Assembly: GCA_029548865.1 (NCBI GenBank)
Contig: JAKPMO010000004.1
Span: 172,747 to 236,746, forward strand
Length of the DNA stretch: 64,000 nucleotides
Direction: 5' to 3'
Source: Caldisericota bacterium
Lineage (GTDB): Bacteria; Caldisericota; Caldisericia; JAAYUI01
In this document: one piece after another, positions 1-9,377 of the stretch
Layout: each line of letters opens with the position of its first letter
How positions within the stretch are numbered: position 1 is the stretch's first letter
The notes under the pieces: model-generated
Told to the model about the DNA's origin: nothing
Databases searched by the model: none
Seen by the model: only the letters and a program-made list of their open reading frames with translations
Translations under genes and position numbers: made by a program

Positions 1-1103
1 GTTTTGCTCAATCCCTTGAAGTGGTTTAGGGTTGTTCCACCTCTTCTTATTTTTACAACCTTAATTACGGAGAACACTGCGATGTTCATGAGCGCATAGG
101 CGGTAACATACATAAGTATGCCCCTGGCACCCTCTGACCTGATTGCTGCTTCAGGAGAGAATGCTATTACAACAATGCCTATGAGCATGTAACCTATCTG
201 CGCAATCGAGCTGTAGGCCATAATCCTTTTTACTTCAGTCTGCCAGATCGCAGTGAGGTTACCATATGTCATGGAGAGTGCCGAGATGGCAGCTATTGAC
301 CATTTTACCAGATTGGTGAAATTGTCGCTTGCCGCTGGGTTGATGCCCATTGATATAAATCTTGAAAGAACTATCAAGGCACCAATTTTTGGGGCAACAG
401 AAATGAATGCAGTTGATATTGGCGGTGAACCTTCGTAAACATCCGGGGCCCAGAAATGAAACGGAACTGCCGCTATTTTGAAAGAAAGGCCTGCGAGTAC
501 AAATATGAACCCGACCATTTCAAGCGGAGTGCCCTTTATGCTGTTGAAAAGCTCTACAAAGCTGAATGTACCTGCTGTTGTGTAGATGAGGGATATTCCA
601 TAGATCGTCATTGCAGATGCAAATGCGCCAAGCAGGAAGTATTTTACGACGGCCTCTTTTGATTTGGGATCGTGTGATTTCAGGCCTGCCAGCATGTATA
701 GGGGTATTGAAGACAGCTCTATTCCCAAATAGAGCGAGAGCATGTGTGACGACTGGACCAGGAGCATCAAGCCGGTGACGGAGATGAGCATGAGGAATAC
801 GAATTCTCCCTGGCGCTTTGAGGCATCGTTGAACATGTCAAGCGAGGAGAGCAGTATTGGCACGGAGATGACCAGAAGCAGTCCCCTGGCAAAATTGGAG
901 AAATCATTTTGCACAAAAAGGTTGCCTGCTGGTTCCCTGATTCCTGGAACAGTCTGCATGACAATAAACGAAACCACGACAGTCAGGATAGCCAACAAGC
1001 CAAGCATATACTTCCTTAGCGGAAACTTGAATACCGACAGGAGTAGTATTATGCAGGCCCCAACAAGAAGGACCATCTCTGGATAAAATGAAGCAAAGTT
1101 CAT
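1..1103 (-). CDS. nuoN: NADH-quinone oxidoreductase subunit N (3' end runs off window)
   Basis: Not in ORF track. Manual translation: ATG at 1103 with AGGAG SD; motifs EAVVKYFLLGAFASA and FKIAAVPFHFWAPDVYEGSP; follows nuoM. Confidence 0.95.
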   Translation of the reverse strand, partial: MNFASFYPEMVLLVGACIILLLSVFKFPLRKYMLGLLAILTVVVSFIVMQTVPGIREPAGNLFVQNDFSNFARGLLLVISVPILLSSLDMFNDASKRQGEFVFLMLISVTGLMLLVQSSHMLSLYLGIELSSIPLYMLAGLKSHDPKSKEAVVKYFLLGAFASAMTIYGISLIYTTAGTFSFVELFNSIKGTPLEMVGFIFVLAGLSFKIAAVPFHFWAPDVYEGSPPISTAFISVAPKIGALIVLSRFISMGINPAASDNFTNLVKWSIAAISALSMTYGNLTAIWQTEVKRIMAYSSIAQIGYMLIGIVVIAFSPEAAIRSEGARGILMYVTAYALMNIAVFSVIKVVKIRRGGTTLNHFKGLSK

Positions 1104-1112
1104 CTCGTCTCC

Positions 1113-2603
1113 TTAAACTATTGGAAGTGTTGGCAGTGTGGTGATTGCATGTTGTATCATATTGAGGAGCGGCATCGGGAATATTCCAATGAAGAATATG
1201 AATCCAAGAAGCGGGGTTGCGGCGAAAAATTCCCTGAAGCTTGCGTCCCTGAGCTCCTTGAAATGCGGGTCTGCAACAGTGCCGAACAACACTCTTTGCA
1301 TCATCCAGAGCATGACACCACCGTTTATGATCATTCCAACAACGGAGACCCAGGCCCACCAGTTGACTGCCTGATATGCCGCAGTCATTGAAAGGAACTC
1401 ACTGACAAAACCAGCAAGAGCTGGCAAACCGATTGATGCAAATGATGCGATGATGAGCATTATCGAGATGATTGGAATGATTGATGCCATTCCCGGGAGC
1501 TTTGCAATTTCCCTTGTGTGGGTTCTGTCATAGATGTAGCCGACCAAAAGGAAGAGGAGGCCTGTTGTGATGCCGTGGTTGAACATTACAAGCACGGCCC
1601 CCTGGAGAGCAGCCACAGCACCTGTTTTGAGGAATGCCGCTACAGCCAGGAGAACAAAGCCCATGTGGTTCACTGAAGTGTATGCAACAAGTTTTTTGAG
1701 GTCTTTCTGGACAAGCGAACAGAATGCTCCGTAAACAATGCCTATTACTCCAAGAATACCGATGATGTCTGCCCACCATGTTGCAGCATACGGCATGATA
1801 CCTACTCCGATACGGATGAGGCCGTAGCCTCCCATTTTAAGCAGGACGCCTGCAAGGAGGATTGATATTGGGGCCGGTGCTTCGACGTGTGCATCAGGAA
1901 GCCAGGTATGGAATGGGAAAGACGGTACCTTGATTGCGAAACCGAGGAAGAGTGCTCCAAACACTGGGAGTCCAAGGGCCCACCCTCTCAGGTTGGCACT
2001 TGTCTCGATCAACTGTGGTATCGAGAAGGTGTTTTGCCCGGAAGCAAAATATATTGCAAGCACACCGACCAGCATGAACAGGGAGCCAACCAAAGTGTAG
2101 ATGAAGAACTTGATCGATGCGTAGAGCTTTCTGGGGCCACCCCAGATACCGATCAGGAAGTACATCGGTACAAGCACAAGTTCCCAGAACACATAGAAAA
2201 GCACCAGGTCAAGCGAAACAAAGACGCCTATAAGACCGGTTTCAAGAAGCAGGAACAGTGAATAGTACTCCTTGTTTCTGTGGTCGATGTTGAACGATGC
2301 AAGACAGGCAACAAAGGAAAGGAGGGTTGTGAGGAAGAGCATGAGCATTGACATGCCATCGACACCAAAGAAGTAGGTAATGCCAACACTTTCAACCCAT
2401 GGCACCTTGTCGATCAGCTGGAAACCAGGAACTGAAGTTTTAAACTGTGTCCAGATGAATATGGAAATGATTAGGTTGGCTACTGTAAAGCCAAGAGCGG
2501 TCCATTTGATCCAGCCTGCCCATTTTTTCGGGAAGAGCAGAAGCAAGAGCGAACCGAGGAGCGGAAGAAACGTTACGATTGTAAGCAATCCATTGAATTC
2601 CAT
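1113..2603 (-). CDS. nuoM: NADH-quinone oxidoreductase subunit M
   Basis: FWELVLVP, AIKVPSFPFHTWLPDAHVEAP, LLKMGGYG, FVSEF motifs; AGGAGG SD. Confidence 0.97.
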   Translation of the reverse strand: MEFNGLLTIVTFLPLLGSLLLLLFPKKWAGWIKWTALGFTVANLIISIFIWTQFKTSVPGFQLIDKVPWVESVGITYFFGVDGMSMLMLFLTTLLSFVACLASFNIDHRNKEYYSLFLLLETGLIGVFVSLDLVLFYVFWELVLVPMYFLIGIWGGPRKLYASIKFFIYTLVGSLFMLVGVLAIYFASGQNTFSIPQLIETSANLRGWALGLPVFGALFLGFAIKVPSFPFHTWLPDAHVEAPAPISILLAGVLLKMGGYGLIRIGVGIMPYAATWWADIIGILGVIGIVYGAFCSLVQKDLKKLVAYTSVNHMGFVLLAVAAFLKTGAVAALQGAVLVMFNHGITTGLLFLLVGYIYDRTHTREIAKLPGMASIIPIISIMLIIASFASIGLPALAGFVSEFLSMTAAYQAVNWWAWVSVVGMIINGGVMLWMMQRVLFGTVADPHFKELRDASFREFFAATPLLGFIFFIGIFPMPLLNMIQHAITTLPTLPIV

Positions 2604-2612
2604 TCATTCCTC

Positions 2613-4676
2613 CTAATTTAGGACGGCAAACCATGCCACAAGTATCAATACCAGTGCTATTGAGGCAAACATTATTGTCGCGTAGTTTGGAAGGTAGCCG
2701 GTTTGCACCTTCCTGACCTTTGAGCCAATGAATCCAGTCAACGCAGCAACGCCATTGACGGCACCATCTATGACATTTTCATCAAACCATTTGACAAGTT
2801 CTGACACCTTGACGGTCAGATACCCTACCAGGTTGACCAGACCGTCAACTATTCCGGCATCGAACCAATAAACGATGTTGCCAAGAACAACCGAGAGCCA
2901 TGCCATTCCATTGACTGCCCCGTCAATGACTGTCCGATCAAACCAGTGGCAAAATTCACTCACATAGAAAAGCGGCTTCACTGCGATGAAAGTCCAGGCC
3001 TCATCAATAAACCACTTATTCTTGAAAAAGAGGTAAAGTGGTTTGAGGACCCTTATGAGTGTTTCTTTTTTGAACCAGCCCCAGGCGTAGATTGCGAGCC
3101 CAAGGAAGATGCCTGCAAGAACAAGCCCTGTGGAGCCAAAAATGAGCGTCCAGTTGACTGCTTCGGATTCGAACTCATGGAAGAATATAAACCTCTGGAA
3201 GAGTTCACCAAAGAACGGTGCCCCGACGAAGCCTATCACCACTGAAAGCACGGCCAGTATTATTAGCGGAAGGGTTGTCTTCCACGAGGCTTCGTGGACA
3301 TGGTTTTCTTTTCTGGGTTTTCCAAAGAAGGTCAGCCAGACACATCTTGTCATGTAGTATGGGGTGAGGAAGGCGGTTATCAGTGCGAGGATAAGCGGTA
3401 TGGTCGAGTGGGTTGCCTCTGCCCCGACAAGTATTGCGTCTTTACTCCAAAACCCGGCAAACGGGAAGAGTCCCGCAAGGGCAAGCGATCCAAGTATGAA
3501 AGTCCACGCGGTGATGGGCATTTTTTTGAACAGTCCGCCCATTTCATGCATGTTTTGGGTATGTGTTGCGTGAATGACCGAGCCTGAGCCAAGGAAGAGC
3601 AAACCTTTGAACATTGCGTGGGTCATGAGGTGGAAGAGTGCAGCAGTGTAGCCAAATTTGCCGAAACCCAGCGCCATTACCATGTAACCCAGTTGACTGA
3701 TGGTTGAATAGGCAAGAACCTTTTTGATGTCATCCTGCACCGTGGCTATTGTTGCAGCAAAAATTGCCGTGAAAGAGCCAACATAAGTGACGACCTTCAA
3801 AGCAATCCCACTGGAATCAAGTGTGAACAGCCCCATACACCTTGCAACAAGATATATACCGGCCGCGACCATAGTTGCGGCATGGATAAGCGCAGAAACT
3901 GGTGTCGGGCCTTCCATGGCGTTGGGGAGCCAGACGTGGAGCGGGAACTGGGCAGATTTGCCCATTGCGCCCATAAAAATCAGGAGTGGTATTATTATGA
4001 GAAGAGCAGGGGCGAGTGATGCAATTGCAGATGGCAGGGCCTCAAGGTTGAGCGTATGAGGGTTTGAGAGTATGAGGCACATTATTATGCCTGTGAAGAG
4101 GCCAATATCTCCAACTTTTGTAACAAAAAAAGCCTTCTTTGCGGCCTGGTATGCGGACCTCTTGTGGAACCAGAAGCCTATGAGAAGATATGAACAGAGA
4201 CCAACCAACTCCCAAAAAGCAAAGAGCTGGAGAAGGTTTGATGCGGTAACTACGCCGAGCATTGCAGTCGTGAAGAGCTGGAGTTCGGCATAGAACCTTG
4301 CAATTCCAGGATCACCGTGCATGTAGTCCTGGGAGAACAGGTGCACAAGGAACGATACCAGCGTGACCACACAAAGCATCATTGCACAGAGCTGGTCGAC
4401 CCTAAACCCGAAATCAAGCGTCAGGTTGCCAGACTGGAGCCAGACAAAGCTGACTGTTGGTGCTGGCCCGTTTGCGATAACGAGTCCAAGCACCACAATC
4501 GAGGTTATCAATGAAATAAAGATGCTTATTGTTGCGAGCTTTGGTCCCCACTCCTTTGCTATTTTTCCGCAGAGGCCAACAATGATGAATCCCAGAAGTG
4601 GAAAGGCCATCGTTAAAACAGCGAGGATCGAGGTGAGGGTCCAGGAACCGGCAAGGGAAGCTACAGTGTGTTCCAT
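2613..4676 (-). CDS. nuoL: NADH-quinone oxidoreductase subunit L with elongated lateral helix
   Basis: FWELVGLCSYLLIGFW, MGKSAQFPLHVWLP, IHAATMV, FWSKD; start placed at ATG 4676 behind AGGAGG. Confidence 0.97.
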   Translation of the reverse strand: MEHTVASLAGSWTLTSILAVLTMAFPLLGFIIVGLCGKIAKEWGPKLATISIFISLITSIVVLGLVIANGPAPTVSFVWLQSGNLTLDFGFRVDQLCAMMLCVVTLVSFLVHLFSQDYMHGDPGIARFYAELQLFTTAMLGVVTASNLLQLFAFWELVGLCSYLLIGFWFHKRSAYQAAKKAFFVTKVGDIGLFTGIIMCLILSNPHTLNLEALPSAIASLAPALLIIIPLLIFMGAMGKSAQFPLHVWLPNAMEGPTPVSALIHAATMVAAGIYLVARCMGLFTLDSSGIALKVVTYVGSFTAIFAATIATVQDDIKKVLAYSTISQLGYMVMALGFGKFGYTAALFHLMTHAMFKGLLFLGSGSVIHATHTQNMHEMGGLFKKMPITAWTFILGSLALAGLFPFAGFWSKDAILVGAEATHSTIPLILALITAFLTPYYMTRCVWLTFFGKPRKENHVHEASWKTTLPLIILAVLSVVIGFVGAPFFGELFQRFIFFHEFESEAVNWTLIFGSTGLVLAGIFLGLAIYAWGWFKKETLIRVLKPLYLFFKNKWFIDEAWTFIAVKPLFYVSEFCHWFDRTVIDGAVNGMAWLSVVLGNIVYWFDAGIVDGLVNLVGYLTVKVSELVKWFDENVIDGAVNGVAALTGFIGSKVRKVQTGYLPNYATIMFASIALVLILVAWFAVLN
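2712..2945 (-). repeat. Three tandem 26-codon repeats (WFDxx(V/I)(I/V)DGxVN...) inside nuoL
   Basis: Trp codons at 2945, 2867 and 2789, exactly 78 nt apart. Confidence 0.93.
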
Positions 4677-4684
4677 TGTCCCTC

Positions 4685-4984
4685 CTACCACTTGAGCAGG
4701 CTGAACTGCTCGAGAGTTACCCAGCCCTTTGCCCTGTACATTGCCACAATTGCACCGAGTCCGACAATGGTTTCAGCTGCTGCAATTGCTATGGCAAACA
4801 CGACCATTGACTGCGCCATGCCTGGATCGGGGAGCTGGCTTGCCGTAGCGATGAAGGTGAGGTTGGCCCCATTGAGCATCAACTCAATGCACATAAGTAT
4901 CCTGATGGCGTTTCTCAGGGTGAGGGCGCCGAGGACACCAAAGCTGAATATTGCAGCACCAAGGATAAGCAAGAGGTAGTTCAT
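4685..4984 (-). CDS. nuoK: NADH-quinone oxidoreductase subunit K
   Basis: RNAIRILMCIELMLNG, AAAETIVGL; 3 TM; operon position. Confidence 0.95.
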   Translation of the reverse strand: MNYLLLILGAAIFSFGVLGALTLRNAIRILMCIELMLNGANLTFIATASQLPDPGMAQSMVVFAIAIAAAETIVGLGAIVAMYRAKGWVTLEQFSLLKW

Positions 4985-5526
4985 ACCTCGTCCTCCTTTT
5001 TCTTTGCCATCTCTATTCCGCCAACAACAGCCGCAAGCAGAAGGAAAGAGGCCATTTCAACAGGCACCATGTAAGGTGTGGAAGCATTGTCTGAATAAAG
5101 TGCGTCACCAACTGCCATCAATGATGTTTTTGGTGGGAGGGCCATTTGTCCCTGGAAGTTAGTTGTTAACTGGCTTTCCGAGGTGTTCATGATGAAGAAG
5201 GAGATTGCACCAAAGAGCGCAAGGGCGACAAAAACACCAAGGACGGCTTGGCGGTTCAGGTGGCTCATCTGCTTTCCAGAGACATCATGCGTGAACATGA
5301 TCGAGAACAGGATGAGTATGGCTATAGCGCCAACGTAGATGGCTATCTGTGCTGCAGCGATAAAATCGGCATGCAACCCTACATAGATTGCCGCAATTGA
5401 CAGGAGGCAACCAATCAGACATATGGCCGCATGGACAATATTTTTTACAGTTACAGTTAGGGCCGCAAAGACAAGTGCGGGGAAGGCGAGTGCCATGTAA
5501 AGAGCCTGTGACATTGTTACATTCAC
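4981..5526 (-). CDS. nuoJ: NADH-quinone oxidoreductase subunit J
   Basis: NIVHAA..L, AQIAIYVGAIAILILF; operon position. Confidence 0.95.
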   Translation of the reverse strand: MNVTMSQALYMALAFPALVFAALTVTVKNIVHAAICLIGCLLSIAAIYVGLHADFIAAAQIAIYVGAIAILILFSIMFTHDVSGKQMSHLNRQAVLGVFVALALFGAISFFIMNTSESQLTTNFQGQMALPPKTSLMAVGDALYSDNASTPYMVPVEMASFLLLAAVVGGIEMAKKKEDEV

Positions 5527-5939
5527 TGTGCACCCCCAAACGGAAGAAGGAGCTCTTCTTTCTCGTGTATCATCCCTTCCCTTGTGTATGAGGAAAGCTC
5601 ATATTTGTGACCAACCTGCAGTGCACCAAACGGGCAAACCTCGACGCATATCCCACAGAATATACACTGCTGGACATTTACACTGTACTTAACCGGGAAA
5701 GGCGTGTTGTCTTCCCTTTTGCCTTTTTCAATGGTGATCGCGTGTGTTGGGCAATTGTTTGCGCAAATTCCGCAGGCGGTGCATTTTTCCCTGCCGTTTT
5801 CATCGCGGACCATTCTCATCAGGGCAAAAAACCTTGGCACCATCGCCTGCTTTTGCTTTGGGTAGCGGAGCGTTATTTTGACCCTGAATATATTTTTAAA
5901 AGTGACCCAGAGAGAGCTTGCTATTCCTGTTCCGTACAT
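5523..5939 (-). CDS. nuoI: NADH-quinone oxidoreductase subunit I (2x[4Fe-4S])
   Basis: CTACGICANNCP and CIFCGICVEVCP. Confidence 0.96.
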   Translation of the reverse strand: MYGTGIASSLWVTFKNIFRVKITLRYPKQKQAMVPRFFALMRMVRDENGREKCTACGICANNCPTHAITIEKGKREDNTPFPVKYSVNVQQCIFCGICVEVCPFGALQVGHKYELSSYTREGMIHEKEELLLPFGGAQ

Positions 5940-5946
5940 GATCACC

Positions 5947-6966
5947 TCATTTCACAAAAACCTTGAGCCAGTTTTCATTTAAAACAACATATGCGGTCAA
6001 GATTATATTGACGAGAGAGAGCGGTAGCATGACTTTCCATGCCATGTTCATGAGCTGGTCAGCCCTGACCCTTGGCAGCGACCTGGAGAACCAGAGGATG
6101 AAACCAACCATAGCAAAGGACTTCAGGAGGAACCAGAACAGTGAAGACAGACCCCATGGAAGGAACTCTGGGCCTGAACCCCCACCAAGATAGAGCGCAG
6201 TAATGATTGCTGAAGTCACAAAGAGATATGTGTATTCTGCAAAGAAAAAGAACGCAAACCTGATGCCGGAGAATTCAACGTTATATCCGGCCACAAGCTC
6301 CGATTCACCTTCTGCAAGGTCAAATGGTATCCTGAATATCTCAGCAAGTGAAGAAACGAAAAATACCAGGAAACCAATGAATTGTGGGGCGATAAACCAA
6401 ACTCTTTGTATCGAAGAGATGTGATATACATTCATACTGCCGGCGAGCATTACCACTGCGATAATCGCCAGTGTTTTTGGGATTTCATAGCTGATTTCCT
6501 GGGCAGCAGTCCTGACAGCACCGAGGAGCGAGAACTTGTTTCCGGATGACCACCCGCCAAGGATTATGCCGATGACAGACAGCGCCATGACGGCCGAGAT
6601 CATCAGAACACCGATTTCAGTGTCCGCGGCAACAAGCTTTATTCCGCCAACAAGTCCAAACGGAATGAAGGCAAAGGTGATAAAAGATGGGGTGAATGCT
6701 ATGAGGGCAGAGTATGAATAGAAAAATTTGTCAGCTGCCTTTGGGATAACATCACCTTTTGTCAGAAGCTTTATCATGTCGGCGAAAGGCTGGAAGAGAC
6801 CCCATGGCCCAACTTCCATCGGGCCAAGTCGCTGGTGCATCCAGCCAAGCAGTTTTCTTTCGGCAAGGGTCAGAAGTAGTGCATTTACCATTACGAACCC
6901 GAAAATGCCTAGCGATATTGCTACCTGGATAAGTGCTACAATCAGATATGGGACGAAGTTTTCCAT
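5947..6966 (-). CDS. nuoH: NADH-quinone oxidoreductase subunit H
   Basis: ERKLLGWMHQRLGP, QPFADMIKL, PFDLAEGESELVAG; start placed at MENFV. Confidence 0.96.
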   Translation of the reverse strand: MENFVPYLIVALIQVAISLGIFGFVMVNALLLTLAERKLLGWMHQRLGPMEVGPWGLFQPFADMIKLLTKGDVIPKAADKFFYSYSALIAFTPSFITFAFIPFGLVGGIKLVAADTEIGVLMISAVMALSVIGIILGGWSSGNKFSLLGAVRTAAQEISYEIPKTLAIIAVVMLAGSMNVYHISSIQRVWFIAPQFIGFLVFFVSSLAEIFRIPFDLAEGESELVAGYNVEFSGIRFAFFFFAEYTYLFVTSAIITALYLGGGSGPEFLPWGLSSLFWFLLKSFAMVGFILWFSRSLPRVRADQLMNMAWKVMLPLSLVNIILTAYVVLNENWLKVFVK

Positions 6967-6970
6967 TTTG

Positions 6971-8077
6971 TCACCTGTCCGAATCGCCCATTGTTGGCGC
7001 CAGCGATGCAAATGCGGCGACGACATCAGGCATGGAGATATTTTGGGCAATATGTGGGAACGACATCAGATTGCTGAAGCTTGGTGAACGGAGTTTTACT
7101 CTATATGGCTTTGAAGAGCCATCAGAAACAAGGTAAACGCCAAATTCACCGATTGGAGCTTCAACCCTGCAGTATATTTCACCGGCCGGGGGCTTGATCA
7201 CCTTTGGCACTTTGGCCATTACAGGCCCTTCCGGAAGGTTTGGCATTATCTGCTCGATGATCCTAACGGACTGCTCTATCTCCTTGAATCTCACCAGGAA
7301 GCGTCCGTATGAATCGCATGTATTTTCACTTATTACATCAAAATCCAGCGTGGGGTATATCTCGTATGGCTCGTCTTTCCTGAGGTCCCTTGCAATGCCA
7401 CAACCCCTGAGGGTAGGCCCCATGCAGGAGAGCTTGAGGGCAGTTTCGGGTTTCAGGATTCCTATGTTTTTTGTCCTTGCCTGGAATATCTCGTTTTTAT
7501 GGAGCATTGAAGCGTATTCTGGGAGTCTGTCTTTGAAGTAGTGAATGAACCTGTCGAGTTTTGAGAGGTATCCTTCTGGAAGGTCGAACTTGACGCCGCC
7601 GAACCTGAAGTAGTTGAAGGTCATCCTTGATCCGGAAACCTCTGCCATCAGCTCCAGGATGTACTCCCTTTCCCTGAGGCAGTAGACCATCGGGGTCATC
7701 GATGCCAGGTCGAGTCCCTGCGCGCCAACGTTTACAAGGTGCGCCGCAATGCGGTTAAGTTCCATCATCAGGACTCTTATGTATTGTGCCCTGATTGGCA
7801 CCTCGATCCCCATGAGTTTTTCAACGGCCTTTACATAGGGATACTCATTGAGGAAACCAGAGATGTAATCAAGCCTGTCTAGATAAGGAATAAATTGTTG
7901 GTAAGTCAGTCTTTCGGCAATCTTTTCTATTCCCCTGTGGAGATAGCCAAGCACTGGTTTGCACCCGACCACAATTTCACCGTCAAGGGTGAGGACTGCT
8001 CTAAAAACACCGTGAGTGGCAGGGTGCTGGGGGCCAAAGTTCACTTCAAGCAGGTCAGTTCTGATTTTTTCTTCCAT
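6971..8077 (-). CDS. nuoD: NADH-quinone oxidoreductase subunit D
   Basis: NFGPQHPATHGV, GYLHRGIEK, RLDY; no NiFe-binding CxxC motifs. Confidence 0.96.
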   Translation of the reverse strand: MEEKIRTDLLEVNFGPQHPATHGVFRAVLTLDGEIVVGCKPVLGYLHRGIEKIAERLTYQQFIPYLDRLDYISGFLNEYPYVKAVEKLMGIEVPIRAQYIRVLMMELNRIAAHLVNVGAQGLDLASMTPMVYCLREREYILELMAEVSGSRMTFNYFRFGGVKFDLPEGYLSKLDRFIHYFKDRLPEYASMLHKNEIFQARTKNIGILKPETALKLSCMGPTLRGCGIARDLRKDEPYEIYPTLDFDVISENTCDSYGRFLVRFKEIEQSVRIIEQIMPNLPEGPVMAKVPKVIKPPAGEIYCRVEAPIGEFGVYLVSDGSSKPYRVKLRSPSFSNLMSFPHIAQNISMPDVVAAFASLAPTMGDSDR

Positions 8078-8086
8078 TTTCCCTCC

Positions 8087-8518
8087 TCAGTCAGTATCTG
8101 TGAAATCTTTGCGGAGAGGATGCCCTGTGAAATTCTCCGGTGTTATTATTCTTTGGAGGTTTGGATGGCCCTCAAACACTATTCCAAACATGTCATAGAC
8201 TTCGCGTTCCAGCCAATCTGCCGCTTCCCAGTCAGGCGTCAGGCTCTTGATTTTTGGGTCCTGTGCAAGCAGTGGAGCGAAAATAAAGACCCTTTCCTTG
8301 GTTTCCCAGTTGTCCAGCATGTAGACCATTTCAAAACCATTGTCTTTGCATTTTGCGGTCAACATCGAGAGGATACTGAAACCAGATTCGCGGAGCTTCA
8401 GGCATGTCTCGGCCGCCTTTGAGCTGTCTACATTGATCATCAGGGCTGTTTCTGGGGCAGGCATTGGAGAGAGGTCAATACCAAATTTTTGCTTTGCAAT
8501 GTCTTTGGAGGTGCTCAT
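8087..8518 (-). CDS. nuoC: NADH-quinone oxidoreductase subunit C (short form)
   Basis: [26 protein letters not shown]. Confidence 0.95.
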
Positions 8519-9018
8519 GGTTGCCTCCCAAGATTGGCTCTTTCTTTCATGATTTTTTTCTCAAGCTCAAGAATGGCAAACTGGAGGGCCTCTGGCCTTG
8601 GTGGACACCCTGGGACATACACATCGACAGGAATTATCTTGTCGACGCCTTTAACTACGGAATAACTGTCAATGAAAGGCCCGCCAGAACAGGCGCAGGC
8701 ACCCATTGCAATGACCCACTTCGGGTTGGGGATCTGCTCATAAAGGAGTCTTGTAGGTTCTGCCATCTTTTTTGTTACAGTTCCTGCAACGATCATGACA
8801 TCGCACTGTCTTGGAGTTGGTCTGAAGAAGCAGCCATGCCTGTCGAAGTCGTATCTTGGCATCCATGCCTGCATCATTTCGAATGCGCAGCAGGCTGTTG
8901 CGTAAGTGAGTGGCCAAAGGGAATTCTTTCTGGCCCAGCCCACCAGCCAGTCCAGTGGTGCAAGAAGAACAGTTGATTTTTCAAGTTCTGTTGGTGCAGG
9001 TGTTTGTGTCAATCCCAT
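8515..9018 (-). CDS. nuoB: NADH-quinone oxidoreductase subunit B
   Basis: [27 protein letters not shown] (N2 cluster ligands). Confidence 0.96.
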
Positions 9019-9377
9019 TTCAACAGCCCCCTTCCCCAAGCATAGAAATATCCAACGAGGAGTATCGCTATGAAGAGTGTTACTTCAAAAATGGCGTAAG
9101 TTCCGAGTTCTTTTACTTTTACGGCCCATGGGTAGAGAAAAACAGCTTCCACATCAAATGCGACGAATATCAATGCAAAAACGATATACCTGATGTTGAA
9201 TTTTATTTTTGAATCTGTCTTTGGCGGTATTCCGCACTCGTAGGACGTTGTTGCGAGGTCACTATCGATTCTCTTTGGTCTTAATGCAAAGGCGAGGAAG
9301 AATGCTATAAGACCCATGGCCAGACCAACCAGGGCGAAGATGCCCACAAACAGGTAACCGAAAGAATAATCGTTCAA
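9009..9377 (-). CDS. nuoA: NADH-quinone oxidoreductase subunit A
   Basis: [22 protein letters not shown] start with GGAGGT SD. Confidence 0.95.

Follow-up and report, generated by a model that had tools for sequence, protein, structure and literature searches.

A 26-residue extension of NuoL in 2M complex I was reportedly described by Chadwick et al. in 2018. For comparison we used portions of PMC9040806, PMC7419157, PMC5938582, PMC7117926, PMC8357420, PMC3046159, PMC13144422 and PMC11238625. In the portions concerned (PMC9040806, PMC7419157, PMC7117926), the 2M enzymes of Nitrospira and Chloroflexota carry the 26-residue insert in the lateral helix (HL) of NuoL, where it is proposed to make room for an extra pump, and combine one extra unit with two nuoM genes. 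The same portion of PMC9040806 describes three further complexes of Ca. Manganitrophaceae. Complex_I_1 and Complex_I_2 have one HL insert with canonical gene content and no additional nuoM, in genomes that also hold a five-pump cluster, while five antiporter-like subunits are proposed for Complex_I_3, encoded by five genes (two MrpD-like, two NuoM and NuoN) with one insert. A single 26-residue insert, even in clusters without an extra nuoM, is thus already published. Headless enzymes are represented by the 11-subunit complex I of Desulfitobacterium hafniense, which has no N-module and for which ferredoxin from POR is the proposed donor and menaquinone the acceptor; NuoL and NuoM are not mentioned in that paper (PMC11238625).

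The window analysed here, a stretch of 64,000 nucleotides from a Caldisericota bacterium, contains a nuoA-B-C-D-H-I-J-K-L-M-N operon with a single nuoM (Table 1), directly followed by an F-type ATP synthase (atp) operon (L001:8136-14400). The headless complex with plain L-M-N order proposed in an earlier note on this DNA is borne out by these 11 subunits, the same number as in D. hafniense. No NuoEFG is encoded in the operon, and the NuoF family PF01512 has no match across the genome (93% complete). NuoD is of the true NuoD type rather than a NiFe hydrogenase large subunit, as it scores above the NF004739 and TIGR01962 cut-offs and is not among the PF00374 matches. NuoM retains the equivalents of E144, K173, K234, K265 and E407. 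Unlike 2M complex I, the locus combines two extra HL units with one nuoM, and a second nuoM gene is lacking. It likewise differs from Complex_I_1 and Complex_I_2 in having two inserts in a genome without further antiporter-like genes, and from Complex_I_3 in having two inserts and only three PF00361 genes, without the two MrpD-like and two nuoM genes.

Table 1. Features of the nuo operon and of the NuoL lateral helix in the window.
Feature	Position	Strand	Remarks
nuoN, 5' part	1..1103	-	484 aa in total; gene end outside window
nuoM	1113..2603	-	496 aa; sole nuoM in genome
nuoL	2613..4676	-	687 aa; above TIGR01974 cut-off
QTG motif and last NuoL transmembrane helix	2613..2705	-	residues 658-687
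HL unit 3	2712..2789	-	NuoL W630-R655; D632 and D637/G638
HL unit 2	2790..2867	-	NuoL W604-K629; D606 and D611/G612
HL unit 1	2868..2945	-	NuoL W578-Y603; D580 and D585/G586
HL start (WFIDE...VKP)	2946..3014	-	residues 555-577; part common to one-unit NuoL
nuoK	4685..4984	-	
nuoJ	4981..5526	-	
nuoI	5523..5945	-	
nuoH	5947..6966	-	
nuoD	6971..8077	-	above NuoD cut-offs NF004739 and TIGR01962
nuoC	8087..8518	-	
nuoB	8515..9018	-	
nuoA	9009..9377	-	first gene of operon

The HL array comprises three tandem, in-phase units spanning NuoL residues 578-655 of 687 (2945-2712, minus strand), and exact translation of this strand returns all three units quoted in the earlier note, confirming the original observation. 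The distance from WxxD to QTG is 103 residues, compared to 48 in E. coli and 51-52 in Anaerolineae NuoL with one unit; hence the net gain in HL is 52 residues, the insertion that had been predicted. The fold is shared with solved NuoL/NdhF/ND5 structures (6HUM, 8QBY, 8E9G, 4HE8, 3RKO; best Foldseek E 6e-36) and the core pumping residues are largely retained, but the aligned examples have one HL unit where the query NuoL has three. By phmmer, 6hum_F and 7eu3_F each match one unit and 8e9g_L matches unit 3, while the single DG stretch of Paracoccus 8qby_L matches both unit 1 and unit 3, in agreement with the view that canonical NuoL contains one such stretch. Separately, it was found that NuoL of this Caldisericia family has Lys at the position of E. 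coli R175 and Thr at that of E359 (9/9 proteins).

Within NuoL, the units share 10, 15 and 11 of 26 residues in pairwise comparison (36, 45 and 35 of 78 nt at the DNA level). When each unit is compared to its counterpart in other genera, across 13 family proteins, identity rises to 53-56%, as against 33-44% to neighbouring units, which indicates that the unit duplications are old and that each unit has been kept separately. Both Asp residues of every unit are invariant in all 39 three-unit NuoL proteins compared (117/117 unit positions; 36-94% identity to the query NuoL), the second Asp being selected by the DNA search pattern in most rows and the first lying outside it. D558 at the HL start is invariant in the same 39 proteins. 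By reading of the spacing after VKP, the first Asp of a unit appears to fall near E. coli D563, which we take to be a residue in contact with NuoM. D563 is named in the title of a reference cited by PMC5938582, in the portion used. The hydrophobic moment of the array reaches its maximum at 96-97 degrees and is almost nil at 100, which fits 26 residues per 7 turns and thus implies that all units face one way. An assembly artefact is countered by the three-unit DNA pattern in 11/11 family genomes, together with an RNA-library contig that covers both the array and the junction of nuoL and nuoM, with a single mismatch and no gap; these RNA runs consist of contigs only, from which no gene ranking or co-transcription can be read.

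The array is accompanied by one nuoM in all 11 genomes of this Caldisericia family (one split over two contigs), and no off-grid array length occurs in any of them. A tblastn and PF00361 search of this genome (93% complete) returned no antiporter-like gene beyond L, M and N, with one additional PF00361 match falling below the cut-off and containing a stop. A PF00361 scan of five family relatives, two of them single-contig, likewise returned only L, M and N in 5/5. The earlier suggestion that extra subunits are encoded past nuoN or elsewhere is therefore unsupported, given that the atp operon lies past nuoN and only L, M and N exceed the PF00361 cut-off in the six genomes. Since these six genomes hold no other antiporter-like gene, the family makes a clean test case; a close NuoL was absent from 30 genomes sampled in other families of the class. 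A fused M-M protein, a candidate raised by open frames of ~1000 aa at nuoM, was rejected: family ORFs are ~500 aa, and the ~1000-aa frames, found in three GC-rich loci, are upstream run-on with one M domain each.

As the reading that we favour, we propose that HL may serve as a ruler, in which one 26-residue docking unit (about 39 Å, 7 turns) would accommodate each NuoM. Three units and one nuoM gene would then lead to the same NuoM being placed head-to-tail up to three times (L-M-M-M-N), and the outcome would be a headless enzyme carrying five antiporter-like subunits, the number proposed for Complex_I_3. In our estimation the chance that a single NuoM fills all three slots is close to even. 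We infer the docking of units to NuoM and the stoichiometry from three regularities that docking on like surfaces predicts, namely length change in whole-unit steps, separate conservation of the units and unit counts never below gene counts, and from NuoM being the only candidate docking surface encoded.

Whole-unit steps are evident in the wider survey, where lengths of 77-78, 103 or 129 account for 102 of 112 measurable homologues (from 120 ranked by likeness to the query, 8 not measured); the 10 off-grid values were mis-anchored by the regex. A strict three-unit pattern yielded 74 metagenomic loci. Both M and N are present in 33 of these, 7 belonging to this Caldisericia family, and nuoM is single in 33/33. 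A further 8 loci show one M followed by the contig end, one has N-like frames immediately behind L, 14 lack such a NuoL, and 18 are without M and N, two of them cut short. The remaining 16 of these 18 encode NuoL-like proteins with 3-6 units, with dabA on the same locus for 15/16. The premise that helix length predicts the number of pump genes fails widely: it is contradicted by the 33 single-M loci, by the Anaerolineae clusters described below and by the portion of PMC9040806 used. Among the other searches, a strict two-unit pattern gave 4 matches in 301 genomes of one phylum, a loose three-unit DNA pattern gave at least 120 loci, with 0/120 of those listed matching NuoL, M or N, and a profile search of representatives gave 2020 matches without gene context. 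One 2.5-kb contig (L205:1-2553), possibly misassembled, carries a three-unit nuoL, a 160-aa N-like frame and nuoN, with no nuoM. A second three-unit lineage (L163, L165, L178, L194, L196, L208, L210) has a long NuoL of 775-822 aa and NuoM frames of 607-631 aa (start codons as predicted) with an insert after TM5.

The DabA-linked arrays are the strongest counter-example to a ruler, unless those proteins recruit NuoM from elsewhere. In 12 that were measured, unit identity reaches 0.92 and the Asp is retained in 55/55 units; hence free slippage and Asp retention both occur without a neighbouring nuoM. They lend weight to an ordinary L-M-N arm with unchanged pumping, in which two units, once present, would expand by slippage in 78-nt steps, a single unit would dock NuoM and the surplus would be tolerated as a surface loop or hairpin. 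Two identical units in one protein (L199) point the same way, and short insertions are tolerated by HL of E. coli. The inserts in canonical clusters reported in the portion of PMC9040806 used are also consistent with such slack. The family array itself speaks against it: the units are old and separately conserved, the Asp outside the search pattern is retained throughout, and array length keeps to the grid where slack would be free to drift. Tolerated slack, the main rival of the ruler, is in our view a real but somewhat doubtful explanation. As regards the DabA-linked proteins themselves (L169, L175, L177, L195, L209, L212 and ten more), their HL is complete, with 3-6 units, the last helix is present, and Gln occupies the E. 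coli K399 position in the 12 aligned. Solved DabB2 differs from them in its short HL, according to the portion of PMC13144422 used.

Multiple use of NuoM might be expected to leave traces, and the absence of such traces again favours slack over a ruler. None of the NuoM columns sets multi-unit lineages apart from one-unit ones, an equally high score being reached in 11/60 shuffles of the 12 labels for lineage; this comparison took in 20 regions solely as extra NuoM sequences, 19 of them from one class-level search. In their ribosome sites, nuoM and nuoL do not differ (-10.6 and -10.4 kcal/mol, 9 genomes), a measure of little power given that it fails to single out atpE too, and a scan found no promoter-like site before nuoM. 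As far as can be judged from these data, neither the sequence of NuoM nor its ribosome site bears a mark of multiple use. Two AlphaFold monomer models of NuoL display a helix at 555-621, a low-confidence break at ~622-628, a further helix and the last transmembrane segment. The break counts for slack and against a ruler, yet whether HL runs straight or folds back cannot be read from these models. Complex prediction with two NuoM copies scored 0.00 in two runs whose controls were not folded, and was counted for neither side.

To relate repeat number to nuoM copy number we used Anaerolineae clusters, taking 60 of the 141 matches listed for 91 genomes, of which 57 reach nuoN; they were selected for similarity to the query and are related to one another, and several unit counts were corrected by eye. 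The unit/nuoM combination in these 57 clusters is 1/1 in ten, 2/1 in thirty-five, 2/2 and 3/1 in five each, and 3/2 and 4/1 in one each, so that the unit count is never below the nuoM count. Among two-unit proteins, unit-to-unit similarity is higher for single-M operons (28.6, n = 34) than for 2M operons (17.0, n = 5), a difference too weak to build on (p = 0.07, with non-independent kin). Close relatives differ in having two, three or four units, and in one relative (L227) a loop is inserted within a unit; both observations count against a ruler. In a NuoL tree (FastTree, 89 sequences, E. coli as root), 2M operons appear at three places within a large multi-unit, single-M clade, as expected if repeated NuoM precedes gene duplication. 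The second NuoM proteins of the six 2M operons form one old, divergent clade, which leaves room for either order of gain and loss of the second nuoM. All six of these proteins (L255, L278, L282, L287, L297, L239) have Leu in the K234 column.

That single old clade makes repeated loss possible, and with it the array as a relic of an ancestor with two or three nuoM genes. One cluster with three units and two M genes (L239) beside three-unit single-M relatives, as well as the transition states suggested in the portion of PMC9040806 used, would agree with such a history. We regard it as very improbable, as no operon with three nuoM genes was found among the metagenomic loci and Anaerolineae clusters surveyed, no decay is seen across three genera at ~67% NuoL identity, and 36 single-M Anaerolineae genomes yielded no stray second-type nuoM.

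The gene neighbourhood raises the question of a different binding partner for the extra units, for instance a further complex I or the ATP synthase encoded alongside, or of a role in carrying the last helix towards NuoH. The atp operon directly follows nuoN in 10/10 family genomes whose nuoN flank was read. Furthermore, in Anaerolineae (L238-L297) atp linkage was found for 10/11 clusters with at least three units or 2M, compared to 1/33 two-unit single-M and 0/10 one-unit clusters, counts that are weakened by the clusters being kin picked by query likeness. Other three-unit lineages have no adjacent atp genes, the extra units retain the motif of the canonical unit, and a fixed second anchor would forbid the observed change between two, three and four units among close relatives. 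We consider such a partner or role unlikely, if a shade less so than a relic.

No report of a three-unit HL or of a repeated single NuoM was found in the literature searched, a body that leaves most subscription journals outside it, and the portion of PMC9040806 used contains no proposal of a repeated NuoM. The conserved three-unit variant of a known HL feature reflects either a hidden assembly principle or a broken published rule of thumb. Taken more generally, complex I may set its pump number by a repeat ruler rather than by gene copies, with one NuoM polymerising head-to-tail under HL, a tentative proposal that we think slightly likelier to be wrong than right. If true, it would imply three NuoM here and two in the products of the many operons, in various phyla, that combine two units with one M. 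Complexes with four, five or six pumps would then be common yet escape notice when genes are counted, and 2M operons would represent a late specialisation of repeated NuoM. Gene content is the basis from which the H+/2e- ratio of complex I is derived, and this approach would fail for many anaerobes if NuoM repeats. One 78-nt unit change would in that case tune the ratio, the two-step problem of 2M origin (a longer helix plus a second gene) would vanish, and arms of three to six pumps would occur naturally, as a series in which coupling along the arm could be tested. Should the additional units prove to be slack, a 26-residue insert would be unsafe as the published sign of an extra pump.

With respect to energetics, the genome encodes POR, HdrABC-MvhADG, a hydrogenase of group 3b type and MenA-like genes; searches of it for NuoF, FeFe hydrogenase and the futalosine family gave no match. 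This gene content fits a putative ferredoxin:menaquinone enzyme, and a five-pump headless complex would probably operate between these two substrates with a higher H+/2e- ratio. Computed from redox potentials, the span permits 3.8-7.1 H+ per 2e-, varying with ferredoxin and pmf. On the same basis, translocation of six H+ would need a pmf of ~0.12-0.14 V in the forward direction, or would be enough to drive reverse transfer. Six H+ per 2e- is thus possible, close to the limit.

Several neighbouring systems were observed in addition. The c subunit of the ATP synthase (L001:12806-13069) contains Q...ES..Y, and an alternate F1F0 c model is among its best matches, below cut-off; this motif resembles a Na+-binding motif, but with Leu in place of Thr. 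A further cluster (G000:C17:11434-17821; L304:434-6821) encodes a Rieske protein, a cytochrome b with an Fe-S tail, an MvhD-like protein, an Fe-S protein, sulfhydrogenase beta- and gamma-like subunits and a second cytochrome b, and could form a quinol-NAD(P) link. Its first cytochrome b occurs in 10/10 family genomes and in 7/7 of one other family. The HdrABC-MvhADG cluster (G000:C19:227879-238471; L298:6879-17471) includes a 1014-aa HdrA, two MvhD-like genes and a NirB-like flavoprotein.
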